64,000 nucleotides of DNA from the IMG/VR virus record IMGVR_UViG_2675903278_000002; one strand, given 5' to 3'. The translations under genes were made by a program, and so were the position numbers. The notes beneath the pieces were generated by a model. That model did not search any database and was not told the origin of the DNA. It saw nothing but the letters and a program-made list of their open reading frames with translations. Source of the stretch: a virus. Its lineage: Duplodnaviria; Heunggongvirae; Uroviricota; Caudoviricetes. Positions 3,504 to 63,351 of this stretch are shown here, in pieces (the stretch's first letter is position 1; every line of letters begins with the position of its first letter).

Positions 3504-4286
3504 GTGCCAATTGTCGGTGTTCCCGGTTGGATTGGGTCTTCGGCTGTCAGTGTGACAGGCCAGAGATGGATGAGTGCGGCTCGAACGGCGGTGCAACTGC
3601 CAGCGGCTGGTTCAATGTCTCAAATGGCCGGGCGATCTAAAGAAGTTCAGTACAGCATCGGTGCGAATCATAACTACAACAAAGACACACTGATCAACTA
3701 TTTAAAATCCCAGGGGGCGACGCCAGTCGTTGTTACCATTACAGGGGATCTGGTGTCGTCCAGTAGCGGCGTGCCATGTTTAGATTTCCCGAGTTCACTT
3801 ACCAACTCTTATATCAGCCTTGTAATCAACGCAGGTGTGACTGTCTATGGACGCGGTGGCAATGGTGGTAGTAACGCTGCCGGTGCTGCTGGTGGTAACG
3901 CAATTAATAATGGCATCGGTACACGCTTGCGTATTACGAATAATGGTGCAATCGCTGGAGGTGGTGGCGGCGGTGGCGGTGGTAACAGGGGTAAACTAAT
4001 ATTTGGTGGTGGCGGTGGTCGCCCATTCGGTGCTGGTGGGTCTTCCTCTCATATGAGTTCCGGTGCAACTGCTGGTACTATTTCCGCTCCTGGTAAAGGA
4101 TCTGTTGGTGAGGGGTCTCTTAGTGCATATACAGGCGGTTCGGGTGGTAATGTCGGTGCTGCTGGAGGAAGATGTAATACTCAAGGTAACGGTACAGAAT
4201 ATAACGGCGGGGCAGCTGGTAAAGCCGTAACTGGCAACGCGCCTACATGGACTAAAGCTGGGGCAATTTACGGCGCTCATGTGTAA
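3504..4286 (+). CDS. Glycine-rich hypothetical protein, possibly tail-fiber associated; proposed GTG start
   Basis: ORF 3447..4286; AAGGAG at 3491..3496 sits 7 nt upstream of GTG 3504; long poly-Gly tracts (GGGGGGGGGN, GGGGG); lies between tail fiber and lysis genes. Confidence 0.45.
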   Translation: MPIVGVPGWIGSSAVSVTGQRWMSAARTAVQLPAAGSMSQMAGRSKEVQYSIGANHNYNKDTLINYLKSQGATPVVVTITGDLVSSSSGVPCLDFPSSLTNSYISLVINAGVTVYGRGGNGGSNAAGAAGGNAINNGIGTRLRITNNGAIAGGGGGGGGGNRGKLIFGGGGGRPFGAGGSSSHMSSGATAGTISAPGKGSVGEGSLSAYTGGSGGNVGAAGGRCNTQGNGTEYNGGAAGKAVTGNAPTWTKAGAIYGAHV

Positions 4287-4360
4287 GTACTTACCTACCA
4301 AGTGTGGGCGTTTTATGATATAAAACCGCCATCCCGATTTGACTTTTCATGGAGGAAAAC

Positions 4361-4684
4361 ATGTCGAACGAGATGGCGGGCGTTACAACAGAGCAAGTTG
4401 AGCGTATTGCCGCGATCGTTGCTCGGGAGGTTGTTGGCAAATTAGGTAAAGAGCTACGTGAAGAAATTGGCCAGGAGGTCAATGATCAGCTGAAAACCTA
4501 CTTTGGTGATATGACCCCGGCGCAACATAGTATTCAACACTCCAATCTGGACAAACTCCTTAACCGGTTAGATTCCATCTCAAGTGGGTTCTTTGGCGGC
4601 ATTGTTTCTAAAATAACGTCGTTCATTATTACCGCACTGCTTTTGGGGTTAGCCGCGTATGGCGTAAAAAGTGGACTGCAATAA
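4361..4684 (+). CDS. Small membrane protein, holin candidate
   Basis: GGAGG RBS before ATG 4361; hydrophobic C-terminal segment ITSFIITALLLGLAAYGV; immediately upstream of the putative endolysin. Confidence 0.4.
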   Translation: MSNEMAGVTTEQVERIAAIVAREVVGKLGKELREEIGQEVNDQLKTYFGDMTPAQHSIQHSNLDKLLNRLDSISSGFFGGIVSKITSFIITALLLGLAAYGVKSGLQ

Positions 4685-4697
4685 CAGGAGATCAAGG

Positions 4698-5390
4698 ATG
4701 AAAACTCCGAGAGGCATTCGTAATAACAACCCTGGCAACCTCGACAAAGGTTCGCCGTGGCAGGGGCTAATCGACAACCCTGCCGAACCGCGCTTTTGCA
4801 CGTTTAAAGACCCTGTTTGGGGGATTCGTGCGCTGGCGGTGACTCTAATTACCTACCACGACAAACGTCGCGCAAAAGACGGCTCAAGTATCGATACCAT
4901 TCGTGAAGTTATTGAACGTTGGGCACCGCCGAATGAAAACAATACTGACGCCTACATTAATGAGGTGTCTAAAGCCGTTGGTGTAACCGCAGACATGATT
5001 ATCGATCTGCATGATTACGACATTCTTCGACCTTTGGTTGAGGCAATCATTCGCCATGAGAATGGGCGAGGTCCGCTAAAAACGCTGAACACCTGGTATG
5101 CGGCAGAAGTTATTGAGGAAGGTCTGCGTCGAGCTGGCGTTGTTAAGCCGGCGAAAACCGTGAAGGCTGTTCCTGTAACTAAAGAAACCGCAGGCGCAAC
5201 TGTTACAGCAGGTATTGGTCTGGCGCAGCTGGCCGATGTTATGCCGCAGGTTTCCGCTGCTATGGATAAAGCACAAGGTCATATCTCTAGCGGGGATACA
5301 GTACGCATCATCTTCGGTATTGCCACTATTGTTGTGGCAGGATTCATTGCCTGGTCGCAGGTAAGAAAACACCAGAAAGGGATGGTCTAA
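4698..5390 (+). CDS. Putative endolysin or peptidoglycan hydrolase (family not assigned)
   Basis: AGGAG RBS before ATG 4698; N-terminal GIRNNNPGNL motif; gene order small membrane protein - this gene - i-spanin - o-spanin matches a canonical lysis cassette; C-terminal hydrophobic segment is atypical. Confidence 0.45.
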   Translation: MKTPRGIRNNNPGNLDKGSPWQGLIDNPAEPRFCTFKDPVWGIRALAVTLITYHDKRRAKDGSSIDTIREVIERWAPPNENNTDAYINEVSKAVGVTADMIIDLHDYDILRPLVEAIIRHENGRGPLKTLNTWYAAEVIEEGLRRAGVVKPAKTVKAVPVTKETAGATVTAGIGLAQLADVMPQVSAAMDKAQGHISSGDTVRIIFGIATIVVAGFIAWSQVRKHQKGMV

Positions 5391-5391
5391 T

Positions 5392-5643
5392 ATGCTAGGC
5401 AGCCTGATGACAAAGCTAAAAGTTGCTTTGATTACGCTGGCTGCCGTTCTTTTCGTTCTTGTCGGCGCTTACACGATGGGCGGGAATGCGGCGCGACGAG
5501 CAATGGAAGAGAAGGCAAAACAGGAAGACAGAAAACGACTTCAAAACACAGTGAAAGTGGTGAATGAGACGAGCAGTAAAATACGTCAGAAAGATGCTTC
5601 TGCCGTTCATCGTGAGTTGTATGATAAGTGGGTGCGTCATTAA
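5392..5643 (+). CDS. i-spanin (Rz-like inner membrane spanin subunit)
   Basis: N-terminal transmembrane helix LKVALITLAAVLFVLVGAY followed by a charged coiled-coil-like region; start overlaps the upstream stop; contains the o-spanin gene in another frame. Confidence 0.6.
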   Translation: MLGSLMTKLKVALITLAAVLFVLVGAYTMGGNAARRAMEEKAKQEDRKRLQNTVKVVNETSSKIRQKDASAVHRELYDKWVRH

Positions 5644-5779
5644 ACCACAAACAGCCAGCGTGTTGTTCTGCGATGGGGCTGAGCCTATCTATATCAGCAA
5701 TAATGATGTAATGACTGAAGAAACCGAACGCCAAATCCTTTTTCACAATACGATGGGAGAGAGGGTTTGTGGTTGGTGA
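5594..5779 (+). CDS. o-spanin (Rz1-like outer membrane lipoprotein), overlapping the 3' end of the i-spanin gene
   Basis: MLLPFIVSCMISGC signal peptide with lipobox cysteine; out-of-frame overlap with 5392..5643, the classic Rz/Rz1 arrangement. Confidence 0.55.
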   Translation: MLLPFIVSCMISGCVIKPQTASVLFCDGAEPIYISNNDVMTEETERQILFHNTMGERVCGW

Positions 5780-5811
5780 TGTCGAAGTTCCCCTCAAATG
5801 AGGGGAACACA

Positions 5812-6333
5812 TTATTCTTCGAACAATTTTTCGATAGATTTTGTAGGATAGAACAAAGAACGCTCGTTGTTACCAACCAGCTGGATAAAGCCTAAACTTT
5901 TATAAAACGCCTTGGCTTTGTCATTTAACGCCTCAACGAAAAGTCCATGAATGCCTACAGCAAGAGATGCATTGTACACAACGCGCATTGCATGTGTTAC
6001 AAGCATTGAGCCAAATCCTTGACCTTGAAGGGACTTGTCCAAAGCCAGCCTACCCAAAGTAACACTTGGAACATTCCGATAAGGAACCTTCTTTTGTTTG
6101 CTTCTTGAAGGTAAGGACTCCTTTTCAAAACAACTACCTGACAAAGTGTAATATCCTAACACTTTTGGCCTTTCTTCTTGAGTGCAAAGCACATAAGCAC
6201 GAAGAATTTTTCCCTCATGCTGCCTTTTTAAGTGGTTGGCTAAAAAGGCGTTTAGTGACTCTTCGCCGCAATCAAAACCGTTTAGATCATAATCTTTCTC
6301 TCCAGAGAAAATCTCTATCGTTGTATTGCTCAC
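5812..6333 (-). CDS. GNAT-family N-acetyltransferase toxin (TacT-like)
   Basis: 173 aa; acetyltransferase-like core (QGQGFGSMLV, FY motif); directly downstream of and co-oriented with a DUF1778-like antitoxin gene. Confidence 0.7.
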   Translation of the reverse strand: MSNTTIEIFSGEKDYDLNGFDCGEESLNAFLANHLKRQHEGKILRAYVLCTQEERPKVLGYYTLSGSCFEKESLPSRSKQKKVPYRNVPSVTLGRLALDKSLQGQGFGSMLVTHAMRVVYNASLAVGIHGLFVEALNDKAKAFYKSLGFIQLVGNNERSLFYPTKSIEKLFEE

Positions 6334-6340
6334 GAGTAAA

Positions 6341-6610
6341 CTACTCCATGCTTTTCAGACGATCAGCAGCTCGTTTCAGCTTGTCGTTCGGTGCCGGAGG
6401 ATTGCTTATAGCGTCCATAACCAGATTCCAGGATTCTTCATTCAGAACTAGTCTACGGTGTTGCTCTATAACTTTCACGGCACGTTCAGATGCACTGCTA
6501 ACCATAAACTGAGTAATGCTCTGGTTAGACATTGCGGCAGCTTCCTCGATGATGCTTTTATCGTCATCGGTTAATCTCAAATCGATGCGCTGCTTTTTTA
6601 GTGCTGACAT
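6341..6610 (-). CDS. DUF1778 (TacA-like) ribbon-helix-helix antitoxin
   Basis: MSALKKQRIDLRLTDDDKSIIEEAAA... matches DUF1778 antitoxins; GGAGG RBS before the ATG at 6610; 7 nt gap to the toxin gene. Confidence 0.7.
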   Translation of the reverse strand: MSALKKQRIDLRLTDDDKSIIEEAAAMSNQSITQFMVSSASERAVKVIEQHRRLVLNEESWNLVMDAISNPPAPNDKLKRAADRLKSME

Positions 6611-9722: not shown

Positions 9723-9789
9723 GACCTGCTTCCGTATGTATTTAATAAGTTACTTATTATTTGTATATACAGAAGCAGGTCTTTTAAAG
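9723..9789. terminator. Large hairpin (10 bp stem GACCTGCTTC/GAAGCAGGTC, AT-rich 39 nt loop) followed by TTTTAAAG; putative terminator; same stem sequence recurs at 56751..56815
   Basis: Inverted repeat read directly in sequence downstream of the KAP NTPase stop. Confidence 0.4.
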
Positions 9790-9895
9790 ACACCCACCAG
9801 AACAAGTCCCTTCCGTTTCCACTTCCAAAAACTGCCACCAGTCGCTATCATCCGCTCATTGTGATAAGTAAGTAACTACCTACCAGGTGAGCCAC

Positions 9896-13280: not shown

Positions 13281-13358
13281 TAACAATCACCTTTAAAATA
13301 AGTAGATGATTACTTATCTTTCTGTGAGAATACTTTCATCTGTTAGCTAGGAGTTGGT

Positions 13359-14135: not shown

Positions 14136-14190
14136 TCTCTCCGCGCGTCGTTTTTTACGCAAATAACGATAGGTAAGTACAAGATTATTT

Positions 14191-14673
14191 ATGGCGGTAG
14201 TTGTGAAAGCTGATTTGTCAAAAATCCCTTCTATTTCAGGAAATAACGGTTATTCACTTCGTTGTGAGGAAGTAAAGATAAACGGTGAGTCGGCATATTG
14301 CAGCTATTCCGTTTGCCAGCACACCATTCTTGCCTTCAAAGAAAACCGTCTTCCTCGAACTTCTTTCCAGTCGTGCGCAACCGCTATTAAAGCAGGCAAA
14401 TGCAAGGCGTTAAAAATGATGGTTGAAGAGATTCGTAAAGGAGAATCTCTGTATTTCGAAGATATGACCGCGCTCATTAAGGAGGTTGAAGAACGGAATA
14501 AACAAGCCAGAACTATAAAACGAAAACGTGACAGTGTAACGATTAATAGCATGGTTAAGAAGAGCACCACATCACAAACAGCGATCACTGACGTGTATGC
14601 GGCGTTGCTTGAAGAAACAACAAAAGAAACACATGAGCAAATCGATCAACATATGGAGGCAAAACAACAATGA
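14191..14673 (+). CDS. Hypothetical protein
   Basis: 160 aa ORF; stop overlaps the ligase start. Confidence 0.5.
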   Translation: MAVVVKADLSKIPSISGNNGYSLRCEEVKINGESAYCSYSVCQHTILAFKENRLPRTSFQSCATAIKAGKCKALKMMVEEIRKGESLYFEDMTALIKEVEERNKQARTIKRKRDSVTINSMVKKSTTSQTAITDVYAALLEETTKETHEQIDQHMEAKQQ

Positions 14674-16803: not shown

Positions 16804-17579
16804 AAATACAATGATAAGTATTTACTTACTTATCTTTTATGTATAAGATGACTTTGTTTTCGTTGAGACGCGACTGTTTGAACTTAAATACAAGTGCAAA
16901 CGAAGAAGTCTATCTGGCAGTAGCCTAATAAGCCAAACACCAGCGAGGTCAGTTTCCAGCCTCGTTACCGAAATGGGACACACTGAGCGAGTGTGATTGC
17001 AGAACGCAGGAGGGAACATGAGTGTTCCCTCCGATGAAGTAACAGAATGGGCGGTCGGTATATTTTCAACTCAATATGACTCCCGGATTCTTAGCCACTG
17101 ACCGCCCATCCTGTTACGTCATTTTGTTCAATTATGTCGTTTATACTGGGTTAAAAAGCGGCGGCGTAGCCCGGCTGGTATGGTTAGCCAGCACACAACG
17201 TTGAGGCCATTACATTTTTATCAATTCTAAGGTTCTATTCACAGAGATACCGGCGAGCGTTGATATGTAACATGTTGGGCAAACATTCAATCGGAGTAGT
17301 GGCCTCAACGTTGTGAAGACAGGATTGTTGTGTAGGTTTAACCACTGTTGCCATTGGTGCCTGTTTTCACAACAAATGATTCCATACATCACATTGTATA
17401 AATTACAAAGTAGGCGCTGTCCTCAAAAACATCATCTACTTAAAGATTTTGTCTTCTATTGAGCGAAGTCGAAAACGTCTGGCACTAACGAAAAGTGCAA
17501 GTAGCGGTGCGTTTCCTGGCAGAAACTAACACCGCCGCGATTGGCACTGTTGAGTAATAAATACTGTCAGTGCTGAATT

Positions 17580-17654
17580 GATGGTGTAGCTCAGCGGTAG
17601 AGCAGTTGGCTGTTAACCAACTGGTCGGTGGTTCGAATCCACCCACCATCGCCA
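17580..17654 (+). tRNA. tRNA-Asn (anticodon GTT)
   Basis: Manual fold: 7 bp acceptor stem GATGGTG/CACCATC, D-arm TAGCTCAGCGGTAGAGC, anticodon loop CTGTTAA, T-loop GGTGGTTCGAATCCACC, 3' GCCA. Confidence 0.75.
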
Positions 17655-17656
17655 AT

Positions 17657-17732
17657 GCCGGTTTAGCTCAGTTGGTAGAGCGCCTGCCTTGTAAGCAGGA
17701 TGTCAGCGGTTCGATCCCGTTAACCGGCACCA
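17657..17732 (+). tRNA. tRNA-Thr (anticodon TGT)
   Basis: Manual fold: acceptor GCCGGTT/AACCGGC, D-arm TAGCTCAGTTGGTAGAGC, anticodon stem CCTGC/GCAGG with loop CTTGTAA, T-loop GGTTCGATCC, 3' ACCA. Confidence 0.75.
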
Positions 17733-18052
17733 ACACAACAGGTAAGAGCATTGGGCGAATCGGCGATACTGACCCACAAGCCCGTAAATCGATAGAGTCA
17801 GACCAGTGCTCTTACCGTTGTGAGGAAGTGCAGCTCTTTGAAGCAACCAGAAGATAAGCATCTGGCTTCACAACACAACGATAAGATCATTACGGTTAAT
17901 CGTCGTTCATGTGCACAATGACTGGTCGAAAGGTAGTGATCTTACCGTTGTGATGAATGCACAGGCTGATGTGCCGCAACTACAGTAGTGCGCGCTTTGC
18001 GGGGCTTGCTACAACCCTGTGTCGGAGTTCAGCACCGACCATCACAATAGCT

Positions 18053-18139
18053 GGAGAGTAGGGAGCATGGTGCTCAAGCGGTCTTGAAATCCGTCCCATT
18101 GTGCAAACGATGATGGTTCGATTCCATTACTCTCCGCCA
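18053..18139 (+). tRNA. Class II tRNA with long variable arm, most likely tRNA-Ser (anticodon TGA); anticodon stem imperfect
   Basis: Acceptor GGAGAGT/ACTCTCC, T-loop GGTTCGATTCC, 3' GCCA, long variable region; anticodon loop CTTGAAA only with a mismatched closing pair. Confidence 0.55.
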
Positions 18140-18292
18140 GACACAGCGTTGAGCGGTTTGGCCTTTTAATCACCCAGATTAAGACTCCGCTAACATAAAC
18201 CAGACCGCTCAACGCTGTGATAGACAATTACGGCAGACGTTCTTAACCATAGCTTGCTAACATCCTAGCAACACTTTTTTCAGCGCAAAATT

Positions 18293-18318
18293 CAAAGGGG
18301 CTTCGGCCCCTTTTTTAC
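18293..18318 (+). terminator. Rho-independent terminator downstream of the tRNA island
   Basis: GGGGC-TTCG-GCCCC hairpin followed by TTTTTT. Confidence 0.7.
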
Positions 18319-18442
18319 TGGGTTGACTCCAGAATATTTCCAGGTATGGTTTTACCACTTTTGGTCTTCATTTAGCAACGGCAGCATTAGACTGCCTGCA
18401 TGTGGGTGACAGGATGTGGCAGAAAAACATGGAGATAAGCCA

Positions 18443-18997
18443 ATGAATAAGCGCAACCTCAATATTCTTGCCTCTCTGGTGATCATGCTCGCTCTGACGG
18501 GATGTAACGAATCGGAGATCGACAAAATTACCTTAATAGGTAGAGATAAAAGCGATCTTGCACAGAACTATAAAGCCCAGTTCCAAGAGCAAACACCCAG
18601 TATTGAGGTATTCGCTCTTCAAGATAAAAATGCACCGAATGAACAGGAACCACATACGTATGGAAATCTCATTGATGGAAAGGTTGAATCGTCTTTAACG
18701 ACAAATGTCGGTAAGTATACGTTCATGCAGATCGGTGAAATGCTGACAAGGGAGTACGGAAAACCGGTAGCAACGAAAGACAGAATTTTCGACCAAGAAG
18801 CTATCTCAGGTATGGACTGTATTGAGACAAAGACCTGTGGTGCAGGCAAGTATTATGAAGTCTATCGAGGGAAGGATCGTTTAGTAATGGTGATTAACGG
18901 TGCAGGCTTTGTGAACGAAAAAGAGGGTGTAACATTGCTTTCTATCACCGATAAGATGATTAAAGTTTCACGCTTGAAAGAAGACAAACGCAAATAG
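18443..18997 (+). CDS. Putative lipoprotein
   Basis: MNKRNLNILASLVIMLALTGC signal peptide with lipobox; GGAG RBS before ATG 18443. Confidence 0.55.
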   Translation: MNKRNLNILASLVIMLALTGCNESEIDKITLIGRDKSDLAQNYKAQFQEQTPSIEVFALQDKNAPNEQEPHTYGNLIDGKVESSLTTNVGKYTFMQIGEMLTREYGKPVATKDRIFDQEAISGMDCIETKTCGAGKYYEVYRGKDRLVMVINGAGFVNEKEGVTLLSITDKMIKVSRLKEDKRK

Positions 18998-30232: not shown

Positions 30233-30503
30233 AGAATTATGGCGCTTGTTGAGGAAGTCACTCCTCTTACGCACTTTGTTTTGCCATGCCGGCAGTTAGC
30301 TTCTGCCTTTGACTATTCATGCGGCAACCCCGCATTTCGCCACAATGGGCAATTCACTTTTATGGAATAAACTGGCCGTTGTGTCGATTTAATTAGCATG
30401 GCCTTACCATGCTAATTTATTCAACTTGTACAATCCTGCAAATCTATCCACTCAGGCTTACACCGTCTTCGTTATTGTAGAAATGAGGATCATCAGCGTT
30501 GAA

Positions 30504-30719
30504 TCAGCTTAGAGCAACGACATTTGCTGCTGCTGGGCCTTTAGCCCCATTCTCGATAGAGAATTCGACCTGCTGGCCTTCTTCCAAAGTGCGGAAATTA
30601 TTACTCTGAATTGCCGAAAAATGTACAAAAACATCTTTACTGCCATCAGCAGGAGAAATAAAGCCAAAGCCTTTATCAGAGTTAAACCATTTTACTAAAC
30701 CAGTCATTTTATTAGACAT
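30504..30719 (-). CDS. cspA: Cold-shock protein (CspA family)
   Basis: [21 protein letters not shown]... RNP1-like motif; 71 aa from the internal ATG at 30719. Confidence 0.85.
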
Positions 30720-31048
30720 AGATATTACCTTCTTAATTTTGTGAGCCACATAGTGCGGCGAGAATTTGATCTGTATAGATTGGGACTTACTTAGGCACTT
30801 AAGGAGGAGACTCACGAAGAAGGGAAATCAGAAGATAACACTGAACTGAGACTGCTTTACTAAAACTGCTTACATAAGGTCTGTCTTGCAAACCAACGAT
30901 GCTATTAACGCATACCCCTTCTTTTCATGCAACCTTTATTTTTCAAAGATAACTAATTTTTGTCACCATTGGTTTAGTAAACGTTAACGAACCAGACGAT
31001 GCCAGACACCTTTACAGAGAACAGATGCCCGCCAATTGGCGGGCATCA

Positions 31049-32582: not shown

Positions 32583-32699
32583 TTTTTGATAGATAATAAG
32601 TAAGTACTGATCTATCATCTAACAGCTCGAAAGAGCCACGAATGAACGAAAGCCCAACGCGCATAGCGCCATCGGCCAAATCACAACAAGGAGAAACAC

Positions 32700-33728
32700 A
32701 TGTCTAAGACATTACTTGATTTGCTTAACAAAACTCGTGAAGACATTGCCGCCAAACGTGGCAACAACGTTGATCTGACTCGCTTAAAAGACGGCGTCAA
32801 CTATATCCGCATCTTCCCGAATAAAGACGACCCAAACGGTAAGTTCTTCCAGACTTTCGGTATGCACTACGTTAAGTATCAGAACGAGGAAGGTAAAGAA
32901 GCAACCAACGCTTATATTTGTGAGCAACATACTCACGGTCGCGCTTGTCAGCTATGCGAAATGGTTATGGAAGGTCGCGCTCGTCACAAGGGTAACAAAG
33001 CAATGGAAGAACGCATCGGTCAAATGCGTGCCACTCCTCGCTACCTGGTCAACGGCATTCTTTCTGCTCGTGAGGATTTCGCAGATGCTGAGAAATGCCA
33101 GTTAATCGAGCTGCCGTCTACTGTATTCGATGATATCTGCAAAGCAATCACCGAAGACATCGCTGATGATATCGGCAATCCACTGAGCAAAGAGGAAGGC
33201 TACGCATTCCTGATTAAACGTACTGGCTCTGGTCGCGATACCAAATATGACGTCTCGCCTAAGCGTAAAGTCTACAAAGGCGATATCGAAGATAAATTCT
33301 GGAACACCCAGCATGATCTGATCGCATACGCAAATCAGGCTGATGAAACTCGTCTTCTGTCGACAGTTCGCACTATGGGTCGTCTGATTGGCATCGCTGC
33401 ACCAACTGCCGCAGCATCTGCACCAGCAATTTCCTCAACCGCGAAAACATCGGCTGCGGCACTACCTGGATTTGGCTCTGTCACTGGTCATACGGAGGGT
33501 GCGACTGCTGTAGCAACCGCTCACACCCCAGCTTCTGAACCAACCAGTCTGGTTGATGAAGAAATCCTCCGTGCCGTTGAAACTGAATTTAAACCAGAAG
33601 CAAGTTCCGCTGCCGTTGCCGTATCAGTCAAAGAGTCTGAAGCAGTCGCAGCGACATCTGTAGCAGCCGCATCTGCGACGGAAGACGAAGGTCTGGATGA
33701 CCTACTGAGAGAGCTGGACTCTCTGTAA
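32700..33728 (+). CDS. Single-stranded DNA-binding protein, T4 gp32-like
   Basis: NYIRIFPNKDDPNGKFFQTFGMHYVK and His/Cys cluster CEQHTHGRACQLCE resemble the gp32 core and zinc site; Ala/Ser-rich acidic C-terminal tail. Confidence 0.65.
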   Translation: MSKTLLDLLNKTREDIAAKRGNNVDLTRLKDGVNYIRIFPNKDDPNGKFFQTFGMHYVKYQNEEGKEATNAYICEQHTHGRACQLCEMVMEGRARHKGNKAMEERIGQMRATPRYLVNGILSAREDFADAEKCQLIELPSTVFDDICKAITEDIADDIGNPLSKEEGYAFLIKRTGSGRDTKYDVSPKRKVYKGDIEDKFWNTQHDLIAYANQADETRLLSTVRTMGRLIGIAAPTAAASAPAISSTAKTSAAALPGFGSVTGHTEGATAVATAHTPASEPTSLVDEEILRAVETEFKPEASSAAVAVSVKESEAVAATSVAAASATEDEGLDDLLRELDSL

Positions 33729-36108: not shown

Positions 36109-36167
36109 CTTGAAAATATATAAGTACTTACTTATTATTTTCGCATAACAACCACATAGGAAAACAC

Positions 36168-37719: not shown

Positions 37720-37774
37720 TCGCCTATTCATAACTAACAAAATAAGTAAACACTAACCACAAAAGGAAAAACAC

Positions 37775-38050: not shown

Positions 38051-38265
38051 GTTTACAGTAAAATTTATATAAGTTAGTATCTACCTATCATGAAGATTTT
38101 TATTGAATACTTGTTACTCATCGTTTCAATAGCTTTTGTCATCGACTGCATTTTCACTGGTGTCATTCGTAAAGTCTTTTCCCCGGTGCACGACGTAGTC
38201 ATAAACGCTTTGGCTATCGTGCTCGTATTTAATTCAGCATTTGATGTAATCAAAGAGGTGGCAGC

Positions 38266-39302: not shown

Positions 39303-40358
39303 CTATTTGCGAGTCTTTGCCTTGCGCAACTCTTCGAGAAGCGCCAGTTCTTCTTTACTCAACATGACCATTTTGCCTTCTTTTTCGTCAGGCACAACGT
39401 CGATAATGTCATCTTGATTCTCATCTGGGAGGCTATATTCCGTCTCATCATTATCGATTTTTGTTGATATTTGTGCCTGGCGTAACTTTGGCCGCCTATA
39501 GTGGATGACGAAGTAGACCGAGTTTCCGCGCTTAACTTCCGTGTAATCGAGATATCCTATCTCTCGCAGCTGTTCCATAGCCTTTCTTACCGTCGCATTC
39601 TGAGTAATAGTGCGACTTGTCAGATTAAGTCTGGCGCGTAAACGGGCTAGTGATATTGGTGCCGGATCAGGCGGCAAACTTTCAATAAAAGTATAAAGCG
39701 CCTGAGCGGATTCTTTTCTTGAGAGTTCGTTTATAGCCCGGAGTTGCAGAAGAACCTTTTTGTCGAACTGGTAGAGTTCGAAAATCTTGGGATCTGCTTT
39801 CAGTTCGACCGTATCGTGCTTGACACTATATTTTGCCGTTTGCACAAGATGCGTTACGTAAAACTCATCAGAGCCTTTGCTACGGAACGAGATGGTATTT
39901 GTGGCAATACGGCTTAGCGAACTGTCCAGGCGTTTGCGTAACTTCGCTGATGACCTGGCGGTCGGAATGCCACACAGCCTTACAAACTCAACGAACGGCA
40001 ACGTGACAGTATCGCCAACGACCTTGTGTTTGGCAAACGCGTGGATTATTCCCACCCACGTTTTAAAGTCGTTATCCATATCAAGCCGAAGGCCAGAGAT
40101 CCTTATGTCTTCGTACCCTTCGGCTTTTGCCAGAGACAGCTGTTTGAGTTCAGCAGAGGCATCCATAGAGACCATTTGCCCCTTTCTTCCTCTGGATGTC
40201 GATTTCAGCGTCGGAACGAAGAGGCCCAGACGCATCAAAGCAACAGGCTGAACAGTGTTATTAGTGTTAGGAACCAACGTAACAACTTCGCCTGTCTTTT
40301 TATCTGTTTCTGAAAATGCTTCAACGATCGCTATGTTTTTATTGCCGTTTTCGCTCAT
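39303..40358 (-). CDS. repA: Iteron-binding plasmid replication initiator (RepA-like)
   Basis: 351 aa ORF flanked on both sides by iteron arrays, with DnaA boxes and an AT-rich stretch upstream. Confidence 0.75.
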
Positions 40359-41746: not shown

Positions 41747-42000
41747 CCCTCCAGATCGTATATTGGCGTAGATAGAATCTACGCCCCCTCAAAATAGCTC
41801 TCATAGCGTTCTACAGTGATCCAGTCTTATTTTTAGTCATACAGACAAGCAAAGTTGCGCCACGATAAATAGGTATATACTTACTTATAAATTTTGTATA
41901 TTAAGGCGCTCGTTTCATTCCTAACATACCGTTATGCATAGTTGTTTACCTCCTCATTGCTCTTAGAATTTGTATCAAAATAACCACAAAGGAAAAACAC

Positions 42001-43086
42001 ATGACTTTGCCATACGGCGTCATTTCTGACTGCCACTACCACAAATGGGATGCGTTCTCCACGACGAACGCTGAGGGGCTTAACTCCAGACTTGAAATAC
42101 AGTTGGAAGCAACGAAAGAAGCAGCCATCGCCATGAAGAAGGCCGGTTGTAAGTACATGTTGGTTGCCGGTGATACATTTCACGTCCGAGGAACTGTGTC
42201 CCCTTCTGTTTTGCATTACGTAACTGAAACGTACAAGTGGATTATCAACGAGCTTGATCTGACAGTAGTAATGCTGGCCGGTAATCACGATCTTGAAACC
42301 AACGATTCAGTATATAGCGCCAACGCAGCAGCATCGCTGAGTTCTATCGGCGTGGTAATCGTATGTGGCAAGCGCCCACACTCAATAAAAATTGGTGATG
42401 TGACTGTCCACCTGATTAGCTGGCGTAACAATCATGCGGAGCTTATCAGCGATCTGAAAGCATTACGTAAGAGCGTAGAAGGTGATAATCATGACGTTGT
42501 TATCCATACATCCATTAACAAAGCCATTCCAACAATGCCTGACGTCGGTATCGATGCGCAGGAGTTAAAGGATATCGGCTTTCGTCTCGTGCTTAGTGGG
42601 CATTACCACAACCACAAAGAGGTCATTCCTGGAGTTATCAGTGTCGGTGCACTGACTCATCAAAATTGGGGAGATGTTGGATCTCTGGCTGGCTACATGA
42701 TCGTAAACCCGGACGGCAGTTTCAGTCACTACGAAACCAGTGCGCCTAAATTCATTAACCTGGAAGATGATGTTGCTGATGACCAAATTCGCGGCAACTA
42801 CGTGCGTTTCCGCGCCGTAATTGAGAACGATGAAGAAGGCATTAAGTACCAGAACATCCTCAAAACAATGGGTGCAAAAGGTGTCGTGTGCAACTTCATC
42901 CGTAAGTCATCAATGATGGAAGGTACAGCCAGCACAACTGAAACCAGCAAAATCGATAGCCTGGGAGAGTCGGTATCTGCTTATTGCAAGATTGTCCACG
43001 ATACTGACGGCGGATTTGATCTGAGCAAATTGGATATTTTGTGTCAGGAAATCCTCACCGAAGCGGAGAGTTCGGAGGCTGTGTGA
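42001..43086 (+). CDS. sbcD: SbcD/Mre11-like nuclease (calcineurin-like phosphoesterase)
   Basis: Metallophosphatase motifs GVISDCHYH, LVAGDTFH, MLAGNHD; followed by the SbcC-like ATPase gene. Confidence 0.8.
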   Translation: MTLPYGVISDCHYHKWDAFSTTNAEGLNSRLEIQLEATKEAAIAMKKAGCKYMLVAGDTFHVRGTVSPSVLHYVTETYKWIINELDLTVVMLAGNHDLETNDSVYSANAAASLSSIGVVIVCGKRPHSIKIGDVTVHLISWRNNHAELISDLKALRKSVEGDNHDVVIHTSINKAIPTMPDVGIDAQELKDIGFRLVLSGHYHNHKEVIPGVISVGALTHQNWGDVGSLAGYMIVNPDGSFSHYETSAPKFINLEDDVADDQIRGNYVRFRAVIENDEEGIKYQNILKTMGAKGVVCNFIRKSSMMEGTASTTETSKIDSLGESVSAYCKIVHDTDGGFDLSKLDILCQEILTEAESSEAV

Positions 43087-46544: not shown

Positions 46545-46577
46545 TTTCATTGATAGGTAAGTGCTTATCTATTAACA

Positions 46578-50259: not shown

Positions 50260-51129
50260 ATGAACTTTACCAAACTGACTGACCACCTGAAACTTGCCAC
50301 CGATCGACTCATTGGATTTAAGCCAGAACCATATGAGTTGCATGAAGGCCATGGTGTAGCCACTGAAAGTATTTACAAGATGGTCGATCAGTTTCATGAA
50401 CTCTTCCAGCATCCGAGACGCGTTATGCCGACACCAGAGCTGCTTCGTCTCCGTGCAAGCCTGATTCATGAAGAAGCTGTAGTGGAAGGTATTCCAGCCG
50501 CAATGAATGGGGATATTGAGCAACTGCTGGATGCAATGGCCGACTTTTTATACGTTGGTGTTGGTACGATGGTCGCCATCAAAGGTGGTATTTCTACCGG
50601 CATGACCTATTACACGCAGGAACAGAGCATTGATCGCTTTATGCAGACAATTTTTGTGCCCGGTAACACTGTTTTCGATGATATGGCAATGCCATTTCAG
50701 GAAGCTCGTGAGGCGTCATGTATGCTCGAAGAGCTGGCAGATAAACTTGAGAACAAGACTGTTAAGGATTCTGAGCTGATTCAGGAACTGCGCCGTGTCA
50801 TGAACAAAATCTATGTGGCGTGCATGATGACCTATCGACTGGCTGATTTCCTCGGTATCAATGTAGTCGAGCTGGTTGGCGAAATTCATCGGTCTAACAT
50901 GACAAAATTATGGCCTGCTGATGTTGAGGAACGTCGCCAGGCTGTGGCCAACTGCAAATACGACTCTTCAGATCTGGGATTCCGCCATGCTGATGGCACC
51001 GATAAGATGATCGGTTTTCGAATTTCCGATGGAAAGATTCTGAAGTCTCCAACCTATAGTGATGTCGATTTATCCTCCTTTGTTGAGCAAGCTAAAGCCT
51101 CAGCAATGTACGGAATGATCAAAAAATAA
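50260..51129 (+). CDS. Hypothetical protein, possibly MazG-like nucleotide pyrophosphohydrolase
   Basis: Helical EE/D-rich segments (LIHEEAVVEG, LEELADKLE) reminiscent of all-alpha NTP pyrophosphatases; weak. Confidence 0.35.
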   Translation: MNFTKLTDHLKLATDRLIGFKPEPYELHEGHGVATESIYKMVDQFHELFQHPRRVMPTPELLRLRASLIHEEAVVEGIPAAMNGDIEQLLDAMADFLYVGVGTMVAIKGGISTGMTYYTQEQSIDRFMQTIFVPGNTVFDDMAMPFQEAREASCMLEELADKLENKTVKDSELIQELRRVMNKIYVACMMTYRLADFLGINVVELVGEIHRSNMTKLWPADVEERRQAVANCKYDSSDLGFRHADGTDKMIGFRISDGKILKSPTYSDVDLSSFVEQAKASAMYGMIKK

Positions 51130-51198
51130 TTGTAGGTAGTTATCTATCTGTGTATATTGCGTTGGCGCGTTAAATTTCTGAAACAACTATTCGTTTTT

Positions 51199-51224: not shown

Positions 51225-51300
51225 TCTGTCTGGTCTTGTTCTCTCAATAAATGTAAACTCACGCAATGAATAAGTGGTTACTTATCTTTGTGAGGTTTTT

Positions 51301-55952: not shown

Positions 55953-56135
55953 CGTTCCCCTACTGAAAATAAAGCCCATAGAGAGCTTTATAGTGCTGGG
56001 TAAGCCAATCACATACCCAGCACCACAAAAACGCGCCAGAGAGCTTCTCGTTTGCATTTCTGGCGCGTTTTATTTGATTGCCAGACATAAAATCAAATGC
56101 AAAAATAGGTATTTACTTACCTATCGAGAAAGAAG

Positions 56136-56750: not shown

Positions 56751-56815
56751 AGCCTGCTTCTGTATATATAAATAACTACATATTAATTATTAATATACGG
56801 AAGCAGGCTGTTTTG
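56751..56815. terminator. Long hairpin (approx 17 bp stem AGCCTGCTTCTGTATAT / ATATACGGAAGCAGGCT, AT-rich loop) followed by GTTTTG; second copy of the element at 9723..9789
   Basis: Read directly downstream of the methyltransferase stop. Confidence 0.45.
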
Positions 56816-56890: not shown

Positions 56891-57145
56891 ATGAATCACT
56901 TTAAGGAAACTAACATGTCATACCCGACTAATGTCGTTGCGCTCGTAGAGAGCGATTTTCTGGCCCAGGCCCGTGAAATGATGAAAGATCGCGAGCAGGC
57001 TTTCAACTTGTACGAATGGGCAATTAAGTGCTTGCATCTTGGGGAGCATCGCGAACTTGTTGAACAGCTTTTAGGTGAGTTGATTAACGAGGTGTTTGCC
57101 TTGAATGTTCAACTACATGGTCGAGAAAATAATCAATCGAAATGA
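56891..57145 (+). CDS. Hypothetical protein
   Basis: 84 aa ORF. Confidence 0.4.
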   Translation: MNHFKETNMSYPTNVVALVESDFLAQAREMMKDREQAFNLYEWAIKCLHLGEHRELVEQLLGELINEVFALNVQLHGRENNQSK

Positions 57146-57179
57146 TAGATAAGTACAAACTATTCATAAAGTGAATTGT

Positions 57180-57729: not shown

Positions 57730-58323
57730 ATGACGACGAAGACACCAGCCCGATCGCAAGAAAAAACTCGCAAAAAAGCCAAAAACAAAAATTCTCCCCG
57801 CACCAATTCCACAACGCCTGTCGTAGAGTTCAATCCCCAGCTTAAAACCGTGAAAATCTTCAGTGATGGCTCTTGCCTTAAAAATCCGGGTGGCCCGGGC
57901 GGTTACGGTATAGTTCTCCAGTATCGTGGTGAGGAACGCGAGTTCTCAGATGGTTTTCATAGCACCACCAATAACCGCATGGAGATGATGGGGGCACTTA
58001 TCGGGCTGGAGCGTTTGAAATATCCATGCAACGTTATTTTGCACTCTGATAGCCAGTATCTGAAAAACGGCATGACACAGTGGATGAAATGGTGGAAACG
58101 CAATGGATGGGTGACTTCTGACAAAAAACCGGTAAAGAATGTTGATCTGTGGAAGCGTCTGGATGAGGCTGCAAGTCGACATAATGTTCGCTGGAAGTGG
58201 GTTAAAGGTCACGCCGGGCATCGTGAAAATGAAATATGTGATCGACTCGCGAAGATCGCAGCTTTTTCCGCAGCAGATATGCCTCACAAGAAAGATATTG
58301 GTTTTGTTTACAACAAGCAGTAA
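57730..58323 (+). CDS. rnhA: Ribonuclease HI
   Basis: RNase H motifs [43 protein letters not shown]; AGGAG RBS before ATG 57730; basic N-terminal extension. Confidence 0.85.
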
Positions 58324-58468
58324 GTAAGTGTTTACCTATCATTTTAAATCATGTATCTTATCAGCGTCAGGATGACAATGTGTCGGTAAGACACAGTTCC
58401 AGGATGGAACGAGAAAGGCGGCTGGCAATCGCCAGCCGCAACTCTTTCTGACACTGGATGGAGTCCAC

Positions 58469-58963: not shown

Positions 58964-58972
58964 GGCGGTTGT

Positions 58973-59838: not shown

Positions 59839-59841
59839 TGA

Positions 59842-60547: not shown

Positions 60548-60602
60548 TCTGATATGGCCGCATGATCGGCCATATTGTGTTGATAAAAAACAAGGATGAA
60601 AA

Positions 60603-60884
60603 ATGGCATACGGTACAGGGATTTACAACAATAAAGGAATTAACGTTACTGGCTTCCTTACTCCTATTTTTTTTCTTGATCGATTTACTGCGTCATCAGG
60701 CTCTAAGACGTACTCCAATCCGCCACCGGGTAAATCGCTACATGCCGTGTGGTCATTGATGCCTCTTAACAACGACAACTACATTAATTTACCTGTTCCA
60801 ACAGTTACTATTAATGGAAATACGGTTAGTTGGTCAAATTTATATACGGGGCTTGGTTCTTACATATACACATACTGGGGATAA
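60603..60884 (+). CDS. Hypothetical protein
   Basis: 93 aa ORF in an AT-rich segment. Confidence 0.35.
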   Translation: MAYGTGIYNNKGINVTGFLTPIFFLDRFTASSGSKTYSNPPPGKSLHAVWSLMPLNNDNYINLPVPTVTINGNTVSWSNLYTGLGSYIYTYWG

Positions 60885-60886
60885 TT

Positions 60887-61501
60887 ATGTTCGGGATGTC
60901 AATTACTCAATCAGATGGAAGTTTGTGGATGAGTCCAGAATTTACTCCGCAAAATCTGATTAATAAAGGGACAATGTCTACATCTAAAGGTTCTGTTTTT
61001 CAAACATCAATCCCATCAAACAAATCATGCTTTTTCTTCATAAAAAGCAGTAATAAGGCGAACATGATGTTTATTCATGAGCATAGTAACGGATACAATG
61101 CTCTCAGATTGCATCAGGTAAATGGTAGCCCCGGAACAATAACAGTTTATGCTTTTTCTGATATGGTGTTACCACATTCTGGCTATGGCATTGCCATGTA
61201 TAACAGCGCAGGCGCAATGGTGTATCACGGTGAGATGATGCCCCTTGATGCGAAACTTATCACTATTTCTGACCCTCAATTTACAATAGATATGGGGTAT
61301 CCATGTGCGGTAATGCCTGCTATGGTTGGGGTATATAACTATAGACGAACCGATTACGACAGACCTGTCTATGTAACAATGACAGGTGCAACTGGAAACC
61401 AAGTATATAACGGTCAATGGTATTCCGGTAATGTCACATGGGATATTAAGAAGATTTATACAAACAAAATTCTGGTGATAAATACCTCCAAGTATGATTA
61501 G
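60887..61501 (+). CDS. Hypothetical protein (possibly secreted or membrane)
   Basis: ORF 60830..61501; ATG 60887 follows a GGGGA RBS and the upstream stop; AT-rich. Confidence 0.4.
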   Translation: MFGMSITQSDGSLWMSPEFTPQNLINKGTMSTSKGSVFQTSIPSNKSCFFFIKSSNKANMMFIHEHSNGYNALRLHQVNGSPGTITVYAFSDMVLPHSGYGIAMYNSAGAMVYHGEMMPLDAKLITISDPQFTIDMGYPCAVMPAMVGVYNYRRTDYDRPVYVTMTGATGNQVYNGQWYSGNVTWDIKKIYTNKILVINTSKYD

Positions 61502-61604
61502 CCAATGCCTTTATTTGAAGGATTGCCTGTTTATTTCTATTTAGTACCTTTTCATTTTTGAAATAATTGCACCATTAAACAAATCACTTCTTAATGGTGC
61601 AATT

Positions 61605-63290
61605 ATGAATACAGCCCTTTCCATCATCGACGATGCCAACTCAAACACTGCTATCGACTATCGGCAGGAAATGAACGTCATCCACGAAATTGTGGCCGAG
61701 TGCGAGAAAGAGATCGCCTTCATGTATCAGGTACACGACTTCGTTTATGGCGACGAACGCCACAACATGATTAATCGCCTGCTGAGACTAAACCATCGAC
61801 CAGATGAAGATCGCTCGCGTTTAAATCGAGGTTGGTTGGATAAAGTCGATCTGGAATGGGTGAAACAGAATATTTGGGCCGAGTACTGGAGGAAGGTCAC
61901 GGACATGACTAACGTTTTGCTGATCATGCCAGCTTCCCGTCGAGATGAGTGGCGCGAGCAGTTTATAGAGGGCAAACAGGAAGTCATCAAAACTGACAGA
62001 ACCGGCTACCAGATGAAGGTTAAAGAGTTCGTTGGTGTACCGGAGTTCAAAGCAGAAACGGTCATACCCACGATGCTTAATTTGCTGAATGACAGGCACA
62101 AATATCTCTCTGAGCGCGTGTATGGCTTGTTTAAGGCGCTGAGTCCTGCGCACAAGACAAATAAGACAAACGGTTTCAGCGAACGTCTGATAATCGCTGA
62201 CTGCATTTCTGATTTCTGGCGGGACAGCGTTAGTGTGAACTATCGCAAAGAGGACTATATCGACGATCTGCGTGTCTTGCTTCATTTCTTCGCGCACAAA
62301 GAATTTATTACCATCAACCGCACTGCTGAGGTGCTATCAGCTGCGTATCGGGCAAACGACTGCCAGACCGGTGACTGGATGAACGTCGATGGAAATCTAA
62401 TGCGCGTGAAGATGTTCAAGAACGGCAACGTTCACTTTGAAATACATCCTGACGTGGCCTGGAAGTTGAATGAGGTGCTGGCTTACAGTATGCCTGCTGC
62501 AATCCCCGCGCCATGTCGCACCGCGCCAAAAACACGGGCACCAAAGCAGTTCGGGTTAATCCAGAAGACGATCTCCGTGCCGGTTCGCACTGCGCTTCGT
62601 GACGGGCGATTAAGCAAAGACAAAGGCGTATGGTACTTCTCTGATTCAGCTCTCCAGAAGTCGCAGGTGGAAGAGCTTGAGCGCACACTGAGCTTCATTG
62701 GCGGCGTGCAGGAGAAAAAGCACTGGCAGTTCCCGTATGAGATCGGCCATACGCTAAATACGATTGTGGCTACCGGATTAATACCGGATACAAAATCACA
62801 CCAGTTCTACCCTACCCCACGCTTGATTGCTGAGTACGTTGCCAGAGCCACTGAATTGAAGTCTGGTGAGAAGCTGCTGGAGCCTCAAGCCGGACGTGGG
62901 GATCTTCTGGCCTATATCAACGCCGATCTGGAAGATGTTACCTGCATAGAAATCGCACCTCTCTTCGCTGATATCCTGCGCGGAAAAGGGTATACGAACA
63001 CGATTTGCTGCGACTTCATAAAGTGGTCTGAGGACAACGTAGGTTATCAGTTCGACAAAATCGTTATGAACCCGCCGTACTCGCTTGGTCGTCATAGAGA
63101 GCACACGCTGGCTGCGCTGGGGCATCTGAAAGTCGGCGGGCGTCTTGTAGCAGTATTGCCGGGCACTGCGCCAATACTGGACTGGATGACGATGGATAAT
63201 TACGTTTATGCCAGAGGGAAGTCGTTTACCAACGAGTTTGAAGACACAGGGATCACAGTCAGCGTATACGTTTTCAAACGCGTTAAATGA
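61605..63290 (+). CDS. Large protein with C-terminal DNA methyltransferase domain (N6-adenine or N4-cytosine class) and an uncharacterised N-terminal domain of about 400 aa
   Basis: C-terminal SAM-binding-like LEPQAGRGDL and catalytic NPPYS. Confidence 0.55.
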   Translation: MNTALSIIDDANSNTAIDYRQEMNVIHEIVAECEKEIAFMYQVHDFVYGDERHNMINRLLRLNHRPDEDRSRLNRGWLDKVDLEWVKQNIWAEYWRKVTDMTNVLLIMPASRRDEWREQFIEGKQEVIKTDRTGYQMKVKEFVGVPEFKAETVIPTMLNLLNDRHKYLSERVYGLFKALSPAHKTNKTNGFSERLIIADCISDFWRDSVSVNYRKEDYIDDLRVLLHFFAHKEFITINRTAEVLSAAYRANDCQTGDWMNVDGNLMRVKMFKNGNVHFEIHPDVAWKLNEVLAYSMPAAIPAPCRTAPKTRAPKQFGLIQKTISVPVRTALRDGRLSKDKGVWYFSDSALQKSQVEELERTLSFIGGVQEKKHWQFPYEIGHTLNTIVATGLIPDTKSHQFYPTPRLIAEYVARATELKSGEKLLEPQAGRGDLLAYINADLEDVTCIEIAPLFADILRGKGYTNTICCDFIKWSEDNVGYQFDKIVMNPPYSLGRHREHTLAALGHLKVGGRLVAVLPGTAPILDWMTMDNYVYARGKSFTNEFEDTGITVSVYVFKRVK

Positions 63291-63351
63291 TAGGTAAATA
63301 CTTACCTAATTTGTGTAAGAATGTAGTTACTAAACGATAAGAGAAAAACAC

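Follow-up and report, generated by a model that had tools for sequence, protein, structure and literature searches.

The DNA analysed in this study is a stretch of 64,000 nucleotides from the IMG/VR virus record IMGVR_UViG_2675903278_000002, in the following referred to as the window, which constitutes part of an SSU5/pHCM2-type phage-plasmid of Escherichia coli. The window shares 97% identity with Escherichia phage Cyrano as well as with many E. coli plasmids of 105-115 kb, the identity to Salmonella phage SSU5 amounting to about 80% and that to relatives from Klebsiella to about 77%. Its genes, nearly all of which are encoded on the plus strand, follow the order tail fibre, lysis, toxin-antitoxin, parA, replication, recombination and nucleotide metabolism. 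Distributed among them is a palindrome of 20-22 bp with the consensus GATARGTAAGT-ACTTACYTATC (the hyphen marking its centre), which recurs in about 20 copies, 16 of them strong and four weak, equivalent to about one per 4 kb, and which is the subject of this work. The copies are found in modules of lytic growth, namely those for lysis, replication, recombination and nucleotide metabolism, and in relatives also in the structural operon.

An initial annotation of the window had listed these palindromes as its second intergenic motif family. We recover the palindrome at essentially all of the coordinates given there and at a frequency that is far above chance. For the 22-mer palindrome GATAGGTAAGTACTTACCTATC, we detected 14 matches with up to six mismatches, compared to 0.1 in dinucleotide shuffles, and eight matches with up to four mismatches compared to none. 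Similarly, the 14-mer core GGTAAGTACTTACC is found 14 times when allowing for three mismatches (1.43 expected), and the half-site 8-mer ATAAGTAA/TTACTTAT is the commonest intergenic 8-mer of the window, with 16 out of 16 copies located between genes. Inspected one by one, the previously listed positions comprise 13 strong sites, two half-sites (14168 and 57144) and three weak or degenerate copies (25187, 37741 and 51127), to which we add a strong copy at 19280 and a copy at 22527 with perfect inner core and different outer arms. The placement in short intergenic gaps was described correctly, the exception being the copy at 4278, which is found at the stop codon of the open reading frame (ORF) 3447-4286. 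What did not hold is the proposed preference for positions just downstream of stop codons. This apparent association is incidental and arises because the gaps are short: within long gaps, the motif is placed by the downstream start, in the middle or by the upstream stop, and the idea of a fixed spacing to either stop or start codons was rejected, since none emerged from the positional analysis.

The individual sites illustrate this variety of contexts. Overlapping with stop codons are the copy CATGTGTAAGTACTTACCTACC (4278-4299), which contains the perfect inner 12-mer GTAAGTACTTAC and is followed by the holin gene at 4349, the copy AGTAAGTAAGTGTTTACCTATC (58319-58340) at the end of an RNase H-like gene and the copy GATAGGTAAATACTTACCTAAT (63289-63310) at the end of a DUF4942 gene, which is followed by TGTAAGAAT at 63314-63322 and has an identical counterpart at position 84177 of SSU5. 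Close to start codons we find GATAAGTAAGTAACTACCTACC (9863-9884), 11 nt before the ATG with which the helicase/primase cluster begins (SSU5 ortholog at 33599), TATAAGTTAGTATCTACCTATC (38068-38089), which abuts the ATG at 38090 and is identical in SSU5 (58073), AATGAATAAGTGGTTACTTATC (51265-51286), which follows a terminator and lies 14 nt before the thyX start, with the GAGG in its tail probably serving as ribosome-binding site, and AATAGGTATTTACTTACCTATC (56104-56125), the copy with the best score, which again follows a terminator and is located 10 nt before the ATG of a methyltransferase gene. The half-site copy GATAGGTAAGTACAAGATTATT (14168-14189), with intact left and degenerate right arm and a predicted RNA folding energy of -3.5 kcal/mol, abuts the start codon at 14191. 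Further sites are AATAAGTAAGTACTGATCTATC (32595-32616) upstream of the gene of a gp32-like single-stranded DNA-binding protein (SSU5 52174), AATATATAAGTACTTACTTATT (36115-36136) directly after a terminator and upstream of 36168 (SSU5 55694), and GATAGGTAAGTGCTTATCTATT (46552-46573), which is succeeded by a terminator-like hairpin and then by nrdA (SSU5 67774). Finally, there are copies with impaired symmetry, including the degenerate GATAAGTAACCACTTACGATAG (25187-25208) between cobT and cobS, whose inner 12-mer contains one mismatch and which has an equivalent in a relative from Acinetobacter baumannii (L089:20175), the weak copies AATAAGTAAACACTAACCACAA (37741-37762; 7.5 bits), where the left arm is the only one retained and the SSU5 counterpart at 57745 is stronger, and TAATTGTAGGTAGTTATCTATC (51127-51148; 9.4 bits), and the half-site copy GATAGATAAGTACAAACTATTC (57144-57165), whose SSU5 ortholog carries a perfect inner 12-mer.

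Some copies are found in an environment that resembles a promoter. At 19280-19301 (GATAGGTAATGACATACCTATT), a -35-like ATGACA in the centre of the palindrome (19288-19293) and a TATAGT located 17 bp downstream (19311-19316) define a promoter-like arrangement that spans the site. Extended -10-like elements follow within 5-9 nt after the copies at 13297, 16813, 41868 and 63289, all of them conserved in SSU5. At 13297-13318, the site AATAAGTAGATGATTACTTATC is followed by TGTGAGAAT (13323-13331), and the SSU5 ortholog at 38177 retains TGTAAGAAT. The site GATAAGTATTTACTTACTTATC (16813-16834), which differs in SSU5 (41772) at one of 22 positions, precedes TAAGAT at 16844-16849, and AATAGGTATATACTTACTTATA (41868-41889), upstream of sbcD, precedes TATATT at 41897-41902, with a CATAAT at equal distance at SSU5 63079. 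Downstream of the 16813 copy, two tRNA genes on the plus strand (17580-17729), whose homologs in Cyrano are annotated as tRNA-Asn and tRNA-Thr, share about 85% identity with the tRNA cluster of P7, P1 and D6. The tails TTTGTGAG and TTTGTGTAAG that had been noticed earlier behind several palindromes are real and conserved in SSU5 at 13297, 19280, 51265 and 63289, but this concerns a minority of the copies. In total, -10-like elements abut or follow about six to nine of 16 copies, while other copies are devoid of a promoter context. The assumption of a -10 element downstream of every copy was rejected, as we found no enrichment compared to the mirrored upstream side.

The pattern of conservation within the palindrome argues for recognition by a symmetric protein at the level of DNA rather than for a hairpin in RNA. 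Conservation extends over the two arms, where T3, A4, T7, A8 and the positions mirroring them are close to invariant, whereas the centre is the least conserved part. Mismatches between the arms that would leave a G·T pair are about as frequent as those that would leave A·C (20/18, 29/23 and 20/24 in three genomes), some copies keep a single arm, and the RNA hairpins predicted for full palindromes are weak (-6 to -8 kcal/mol). Together, the conserved arms, the equal mismatch types, the existence of half-sites and the weak hairpins speak for a symmetric site that is read as DNA. A hairpin acting in polycistronic transcripts as terminator, processing site or translational operator would agree with the ability of full palindromes to fold, with the many copies that are located between a stop codon and the next start codon and with the presence of A-rich and T-rich flanks. 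Nevertheless, we consider it hardly credible, since there is no excess of G·U-compatible over A·C mismatches despite transcription almost exclusively from one strand, since it is the sequence and not the pairing that is conserved, since half-site copies do not fold and the stems are AU-rich and weak, and since several copies have strong terminators of their own further downstream. No Rfam family matches at palindrome sites of the window, and an RNA hairpin, terminator or processing site was rejected on mismatch types, folding energies and half-site copies. The earlier suggestion of a processing or packaging signal is not borne out either, given the lack of a strand-specific RNA signature, the weak hairpins and the dispersed copies.

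The comparison with related phage-plasmids reveals that the motif is retained at matching positions from E. coli to Acinetobacter, with 25-30 copies per genome in the family. In Cyrano, the structural operon contains copies at the junction between the terminase and portal genes and within the portal gene itself, behind the capsid gene, ahead of the major tail gene and behind the tail fibre gene, and a further copy is located upstream of a parB-like gene, while the region between 85 and 105 kb contains no site of at least 16 bits. SSU5 harbours 22 strong copies at matching places, and its orthologous sites are 86% identical to those of the window compared to 72% in the flanks. In pMT1 from Yersinia pestis, sites are kept in the SSU5-like parts and absent from about 34 kb of acquired DNA. 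More distantly related is a viral contig of 103 kb, whose proteins share only 40-60% identity and in which the variant TTAAGTAAGTACTTACTTAA is present at equivalent positions. For pYFY27.1, the relative from A. baumannii, the motif takes the form (A)ATATT-AGTAAGYRCTTACT, with 11 matches in 50 kb compared to 0.48 expected and a total of 32 sites over 100 kb, the matching positions including the gap between the helicase and parB genes, the terminase/portal junction and the position after the capsid gene. The outer arms differ between the lineages, reading ATA...TAT in enterobacteria, TTA...TAA in the 103-kb contig and ATATTA... in Acinetobacter. Conversely, the palindrome is not enriched in phage P1, where a search with the 20-bp rule for sites of the host protein SlmA that is introduced below yielded 2 matches compared to 2.4 expected. 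As judged from these sequences, the palindrome family is old, specific to this backbone and restricted to its lytic modules.

The protein that we favour as binding partner is encoded on the minus strand of the window at 22113-22499. This gene for an Xre-type repressor of 128 residues, with a weak match to the helix-turn-helix (HTH) family HTH_19 of Pfam, adjoins an integrase gene (21015-22118) and is followed on the opposite strand by a divergent ORF of 70 residues (22751-22963), which might encode a Cro-like or antirepressor partner. Integrase, Xre gene and divergent ORF together display the layout of an immunity module. The core copy CTCTGGTAAGTGCTTACCGATA (22527-22548), with its perfect core at 22531-22544, is located 28 nt upstream of the Xre gene as a putative autoregulatory operator. 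It is accompanied by the half-sites TCGATAGGCACTTAA at 22590, AATAGGTAAG at 22645 and CCTTACCATAG at 22715, the last one (of a set extending to 22726) abutting TAGTAT/TATAAG. This combination of a perfect inner core and three half-sites in a divergent region of 250 bp has no counterpart elsewhere in the window, and the element GGTAAG occurs there four times compared to 0.16 expected from the window-wide rate. On the minus strand, the core at 22527 is followed by GAGAAT and then by the ribosome-binding site and ATG of the repressor gene, a layout that is shared by several copies at lytic genes. An identical core is found upstream of the Xre homolog of pMT1, and in the A. baumannii relative the equivalent intergenic region contains three half-sites. 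Among the Xre proteins from E. coli, Yersinia and Acinetobacter, which share 31-65% identity, the residues N39, N41, S44 and K50 of the putative recognition helix are invariant, in line with the invariance of the inner motif. The gene is present in 865 records of one plasmid collection, and its counts per genus closely follow those of the SSU5-like plasmids that were identified by probing for terminase and portal (348/336 for Klebsiella, 230/204 for Escherichia, 92/91 for Enterobacter, 63/62 for Yersinia and 49/48 for Salmonella). A further link is provided by SSU5, the one member of the family that was isolated as a lytic phage, in which the integrase-repressor segment is missing but the sites are retained.

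These observations suggest that the palindrome serves as regulon-wide operator of a symmetric protein encoded by the backbone, for which the Xre/HTH-type repressor is the most likely candidate, an assignment in which we place slightly better than even confidence. It coincides with one of the possibilities contained in the initial annotation, which had considered a second regulon-wide site for a different repressor. Several observations weigh against it. The link between the Xre protein and the motif is one of association, and the match of the protein to HTH_19 remains below the curated cut-off. The copy at the Xre gene shares the inner 14 bp of the palindrome and not its outer arms, the immunity region of the A. 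baumannii relative contains half-sites only, and several copies lack a plausible promoter context. In the A. baumannii relative, the sites also show an asymmetry between sense and antisense sides, with a -10 element at fixed offset and no visible -35. Moreover, the lytic isolate SSU5 is devoid of the whole integrase-repressor segment (SSU5 42596-42761 compared to 17730-23061 of the window), yet it has retained the sites, which are at least as close to the consensus as those of the window. Latter would fit a recent deletion of the repressor but equally a different binder. The segment of about 5 kb that is missing from SSU5 holds, in the window, several small genes in addition to the integrase, the Xre repressor and its divergent partner. 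Its absence had initially led us to dismiss the Xre repressor, a decision that was reversed by the homologs in pMT1, in the A. baumannii relative and in the 865 plasmids. As another candidate, we considered and set aside a protein annotated as 'transcriptional regulator' that is encoded outside the window on the minus strand of Cyrano (100780-101301; L009 1780-2301) and constitutes a full-length homolog of FljA (E = 1e-80), the repressor of phase-1 flagellin. There is no site near its gene and it is probably directed at host flagellin, which suggests that the phage-plasmid interferes with flagellin expression of its host.

If the Xre-type repressor were the binding partner, a dimer or pair of dimers on the palindrome would cover the -35 and spacer region against a -10-like hexamer, at promoters that lack a -35 box. 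The hexamer would be provided either by the outer arm, which in enterobacterial copies reads TATC(A/T)T, or by a downstream element of the TGTGAGAAT type. In this way, RNA polymerase would be excluded from about thirty lytic promoters, keeping the plasmid prophage silent. The core copy at the divergent promoter of the repressor, with presumed lower affinity, would together with the half-sites account for autoregulation and a switch, and copies near start codons or before terminators might act as roadblocks or as anchor sites for cooperative binding. Loss or inactivation of the repressor would then free all promoters at once.

This mechanism would combine features of known prophage networks. 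The operators and stoperators of gp71 from mycobacteriophage L5 are said to number about 25-30 copies in short intergenic spaces of both early and late genes; some of them reportedly coincide with promoters and many do not, and they are described as often located by stop and start codons. They are reportedly asymmetric 13-mers that act in one orientation. Our palindromes share the number of about 25-30 copies and the intergenic location but are symmetric, and their role as roadblocks is putative. With the C1 system of P1, the phage-plasmid shares the lifestyle of an enterobacterial plasmid prophage whose single repressor controls 17 or more dispersed operators, several of them at its own gene (P1 annotation). 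It differs in that the C1 operator is an asymmetric 17-mer resembling ATTGCTCTAATAAATTT, as opposed to a palindrome of 20-22 bp and a small candidate regulator of the Xre type; a homology search did not identify any C1 homolog. By analogy, the logic inferred here would be that of the P1 C1 regulon combined with the L5 operator/stoperator network, except that the protein is unrelated and its site palindromic.

The features of the A. baumannii relative permit a different interpretation, in which the palindrome would bind an activator or sigma-associated factor encoded by the phage-plasmid that replaces the -35 element, with the adjacent hexamer acting as -10, as in the Lpa-dependent late promoters of P1. 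In pYFY27.1, the core is followed on the gene-sense side by TATAAT at five and by TAATAT at seven sites, the hexamer TAATAA flanks the core on the antisense side at 12 out of 32 sites but on the sense side at none of the 32 (Fisher p = 1.4e-4), and a -35 consensus is missing. The outer arm TATC(A/T)T of enterobacterial copies occupies the same offset as the Acinetobacter hexamer, SSU5 keeps excellent sites in spite of lacking the Xre repressor, and the A. baumannii relative encodes a protein of the sigma-70 family. The gene of this protein is located directly after cobT/cobS-like genes (L089 21548-22213), and no enterobacterial counterpart was detected. P1 late promoters contain a similar inner palindrome, AAGTkACTT, at a distance of 4 nt from the -10 element; the shared layout of an AAGT/ACTT-type inverted repeat just upstream of a -10 without -35 is also the one of the Acinetobacter variant. 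However, the P1 repeat comprises 9 bp with a central base, whereas the palindromes described here are evenly spaced over 20-22 bp, precede also early genes and in places lack a promoter context. The P1 9-bp repeat near -22, AAGTNACTT, is not enriched in the window (2 matches compared to 1.2 expected), and phmmer searches with P1 Lpa against six-frame ORFs of the window, Cyrano, SSU5, the first 50 kb of pMT1 and the A. baumannii relative yielded no homolog at E<=1. P1-type late promoters were therefore rejected on the missing Lpa and C1 homologs and the different spacing. For an activator in general, the absence of an Lpa homolog in the relatives and of an enterobacterial counterpart of the sigma protein is unfavourable, as is the full symmetry of the enterobacterial sites, where hexamers are equally good on both strands although the genes are nearly all on one. 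Equally difficult to reconcile with an activator are copies that are separated by 0-2 nt from start codons (38068 and 14168), copies upstream of terminators (46552 and, in Cyrano and the A. baumannii relative, after the capsid gene), the copy inside the portal gene of relatives and the core copy at the promoter of the repressor itself. We thus assign to this interpretation a low but appreciable probability. A phage-specific promoter class had already been proposed in the initial annotation; its backing comes from the Acinetobacter core, which abuts TATAAT/TAATAT on the gene-sense side only, while as a general description it conflicts with the symmetry of the copies and with those next to starts, ahead of terminators and within the portal gene.

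A second protein encoded by the backbone that could account for the palindromes is the ParB_N-domain protein heading the terminase operon (Cyrano 105144-105824; L009 6144-6824), for which homologs are found in SSU5, pMT1 and the A. baumannii relative. The palindromes would in this case be parS-like loading or centromere sites that mediate silencing akin to KorB or Noc, condensation or partition. The use of numerous palindromes scattered over a genome is a feature of ParB-family proteins, KorB and Noc among them, and canonical parS palindromes are as a rule conserved through their centre. In Cyrano, SSU5, pMT1 and the A. baumannii relative, a copy is located 16-40 nt upstream of the parB-like gene, and the protein is common to all lineages, with an invariant C-terminal segment HQxMRFKV...NAGxALVxL. 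This segment appears ribbon-helix-helix-like by eye only. On the other hand, ParB_N is the only domain that is recognised in the protein, with neither an HTH nor another DNA-binding domain being found, the centre of our motif is its least conserved part, the gene resides in a late operon instead of a maintenance module and the cluster of half-sites at the Xre gene would be left unexplained. An AlphaFold model of the protein, with a mean predicted local distance difference test score (pLDDT) of 41, was unusable. Thus, while the palindromes resemble the OB sites of KorB on IncP plasmids and the arrays of ParB and Noc in the use of a dozen or more dispersed palindromes for global control, with one copy beside a parB-like gene, they deviate in the absence of a recognisable HTH, the least-conserved centre and the stronger link to the Xre gene. 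We therefore regard the ParB_N protein as a very improbable binder, and it was set aside as no DNA-binding domain was detected. The same operon encodes a second ParB/Srx protein, two ABC-type ATPases, one of which is fused to a predicted acetyltransferase domain (Cyrano annotation), and the terminase.

In light of the sequence of its core, the palindrome may also be related to a protein of the host, the nucleoid-occlusion factor SlmA. The 12-bp SlmA-binding sequence is GTGAGTACTCAC, in which positions 1, 2, 4 and 5 must be occupied by G, T, A and G, position 3 accepts any purine (with a change from G to A shifting the Kd from about 50 to about 60 nM) and position 6 any pyrimidine (PMC3020112). 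The 20-bp consensus consists of the halves GTAAGTGAGC and GCTCACTTAC, is bound by a dimer of dimers and is exemplified by the natural site SBS17 with the half-site GTAAGTAAAT (PMC4423959). The inner 12-mer GTAAGTACTTAC/GTAAGTGCTTAC of our palindrome, as found at 4283-4294, at 22532-22543 and as inner 12-mer of other sites, exactly fits these rules, and the consensus of the window, ATARGTAAGT-ACTTACYTAT, obeys them at nine of ten positions per half. Searching the window with the literature rule GTRAGYRCTYAC (GTRAGY-RCTYAC) identifies two exact matches and six with one mismatch compared to 1.46 expected, and the 20-bp rule at a threshold of at least 15 of 20 positions retrieves 14 matches in the window (2.4 expected) and 25 in SSU5 (2.7 expected), as opposed to P1 with its background level. 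The palindromes could hence be an SlmA array, by which the phage-plasmid would recruit or titrate SlmA to couple copy number or lytic replication to cell division, or where SlmA would act as co-repressor.

SlmA as primary binder was our former leading idea, and it was downgraded once the motif appeared in the A. baumannii relative. A. baumannii is devoid of SlmA (PMC13060281), but the inner motif is kept there at matching positions, and SlmA can therefore not be the ancestral or universal binding partner. None of the relatives examined encodes an SlmA homolog. In addition, the motif is more tightly conserved than demanded by the SlmA rules, both at its outer positions (A at -10 and an invariant TA at -9/-8) and in its strict A at -4, an exact GTRAG is found in only about 40-55% of the inner half-sites, and chromosomal SlmA sites are located inside genes in 22 of 24 cases (PMC5519180), whereas the copies of the phage-plasmid are intergenic. 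The role of SlmA as primary binder is for these reasons improbable. Both types of sites are 20-bp palindromes of GTRAG-like elements that are offset by 4 bp, with differences in the outer-arm preferences and in density, which amounts to 24-52 sites per 4.6 Mb chromosome compared to about one per 4 kb here. The nucleoid protein invoked in the initial annotation thus touches on a genuine match to the SlmA-binding sequence but is at variance with the conservation of the motif in a host without SlmA. Unrelated to this question are several copies of a perfect palindrome GTAAGTAAGTACTTACTTAC next to terminase genes in unrelated IMG/VR contigs (L031 2371 and 4462-4495; L047 11623 and 11678). The set comprises 31 matches from about 12 contig families, with the bases at -10 and +10, which were not constrained in the search, being predominantly G (21) and C (22). 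These contigs were rejected as support for a host factor, since their terminases resemble those of marine pelagiphage-like phages and are uninformative on SlmA.

Irrespective of the primary binder, cross-binding of SlmA to the sites in enterobacteria appears plausible from their sequence. With 25-30 sites, each copy of the phage-plasmid carries about as many as the whole E. coli chromosome (24-52), and at the approximately 5.5 copies per chromosome that are described for Cyrano (LF82 paper), their number would therefore exceed that of the chromosome. Multicopy plasmids with SlmA sites cause an SlmA-dependent block of division, and a reporter is repressed when such a site is placed between its -35 and -10 elements (PMC3573117, PMC4117426). 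We thus tentatively consider it possible that operators double in enterobacteria as high-affinity SlmA sites. If so, SlmA might be sequestered or activated throughout the cell, and copy number or lytic replication would then block host division without the contribution of a phage protein. Alternatively, SlmA might serve as a co-repressor supplied by the host that is titrated off as the element replicates, or SlmA and the phage repressor might compete for the same sites.

Besides the palindrome, the window contains other features of note. A third family of repeats consists of long hairpins of the form CCTGCTTCyGTAT...AT-rich apex...ATACrGAAGCAGG followed by a T-run, which resemble terminators and are found at 9723-9781, at 56753-56808 and, near the end of the Cyrano genome, at about 108346-108379. 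The apex of the hairpin at 9723-9781 contains AAGTTACTT, which is the exact sequence of a P1-type -22 box. The repeats AGTGGATA, CACTATAG and CACTGTAG between 38880 and 41100 flank repA (39303-40358, minus strand); they are probably RepA iterons and may correspond to the motif family that had been listed first in the initial annotation. On the minus strand at 30479-30897, a full-length match to the Rfam cspA thermoregulator with 186 bits marks a cspA-like cold-shock gene with regulatory 5' leader.

In summary, the palindromes most likely form the dispersed operator network of a plasmid prophage, with the unusual property that the core of the operator mimics the SlmA-binding sequence. The searched literature contains no mention of the motif strings, of SlmA sites on phages or plasmids, of a direct connection of this kind to the division control of a host or of regulatory motifs in SSU5-like elements. 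Among clinical E. coli, Klebsiella, Enterobacter, Salmonella, Yersinia and Acinetobacter, phage-plasmids of the SSU5/pHCM2/pMT1 type are very frequent, with about 900 records in one plasmid collection, and they also carry resistance genes. A conserved operator together with a candidate repressor would allow the lytic regulon to be mapped in a testable manner, open a way to induce or cure these elements and supply a sequence by which members of the family can be recognised. Given the exact agreement of its core with the SlmA-binding sequence, the operator also suggests that a mobile element may be directly connected to the control of cell division in its host.

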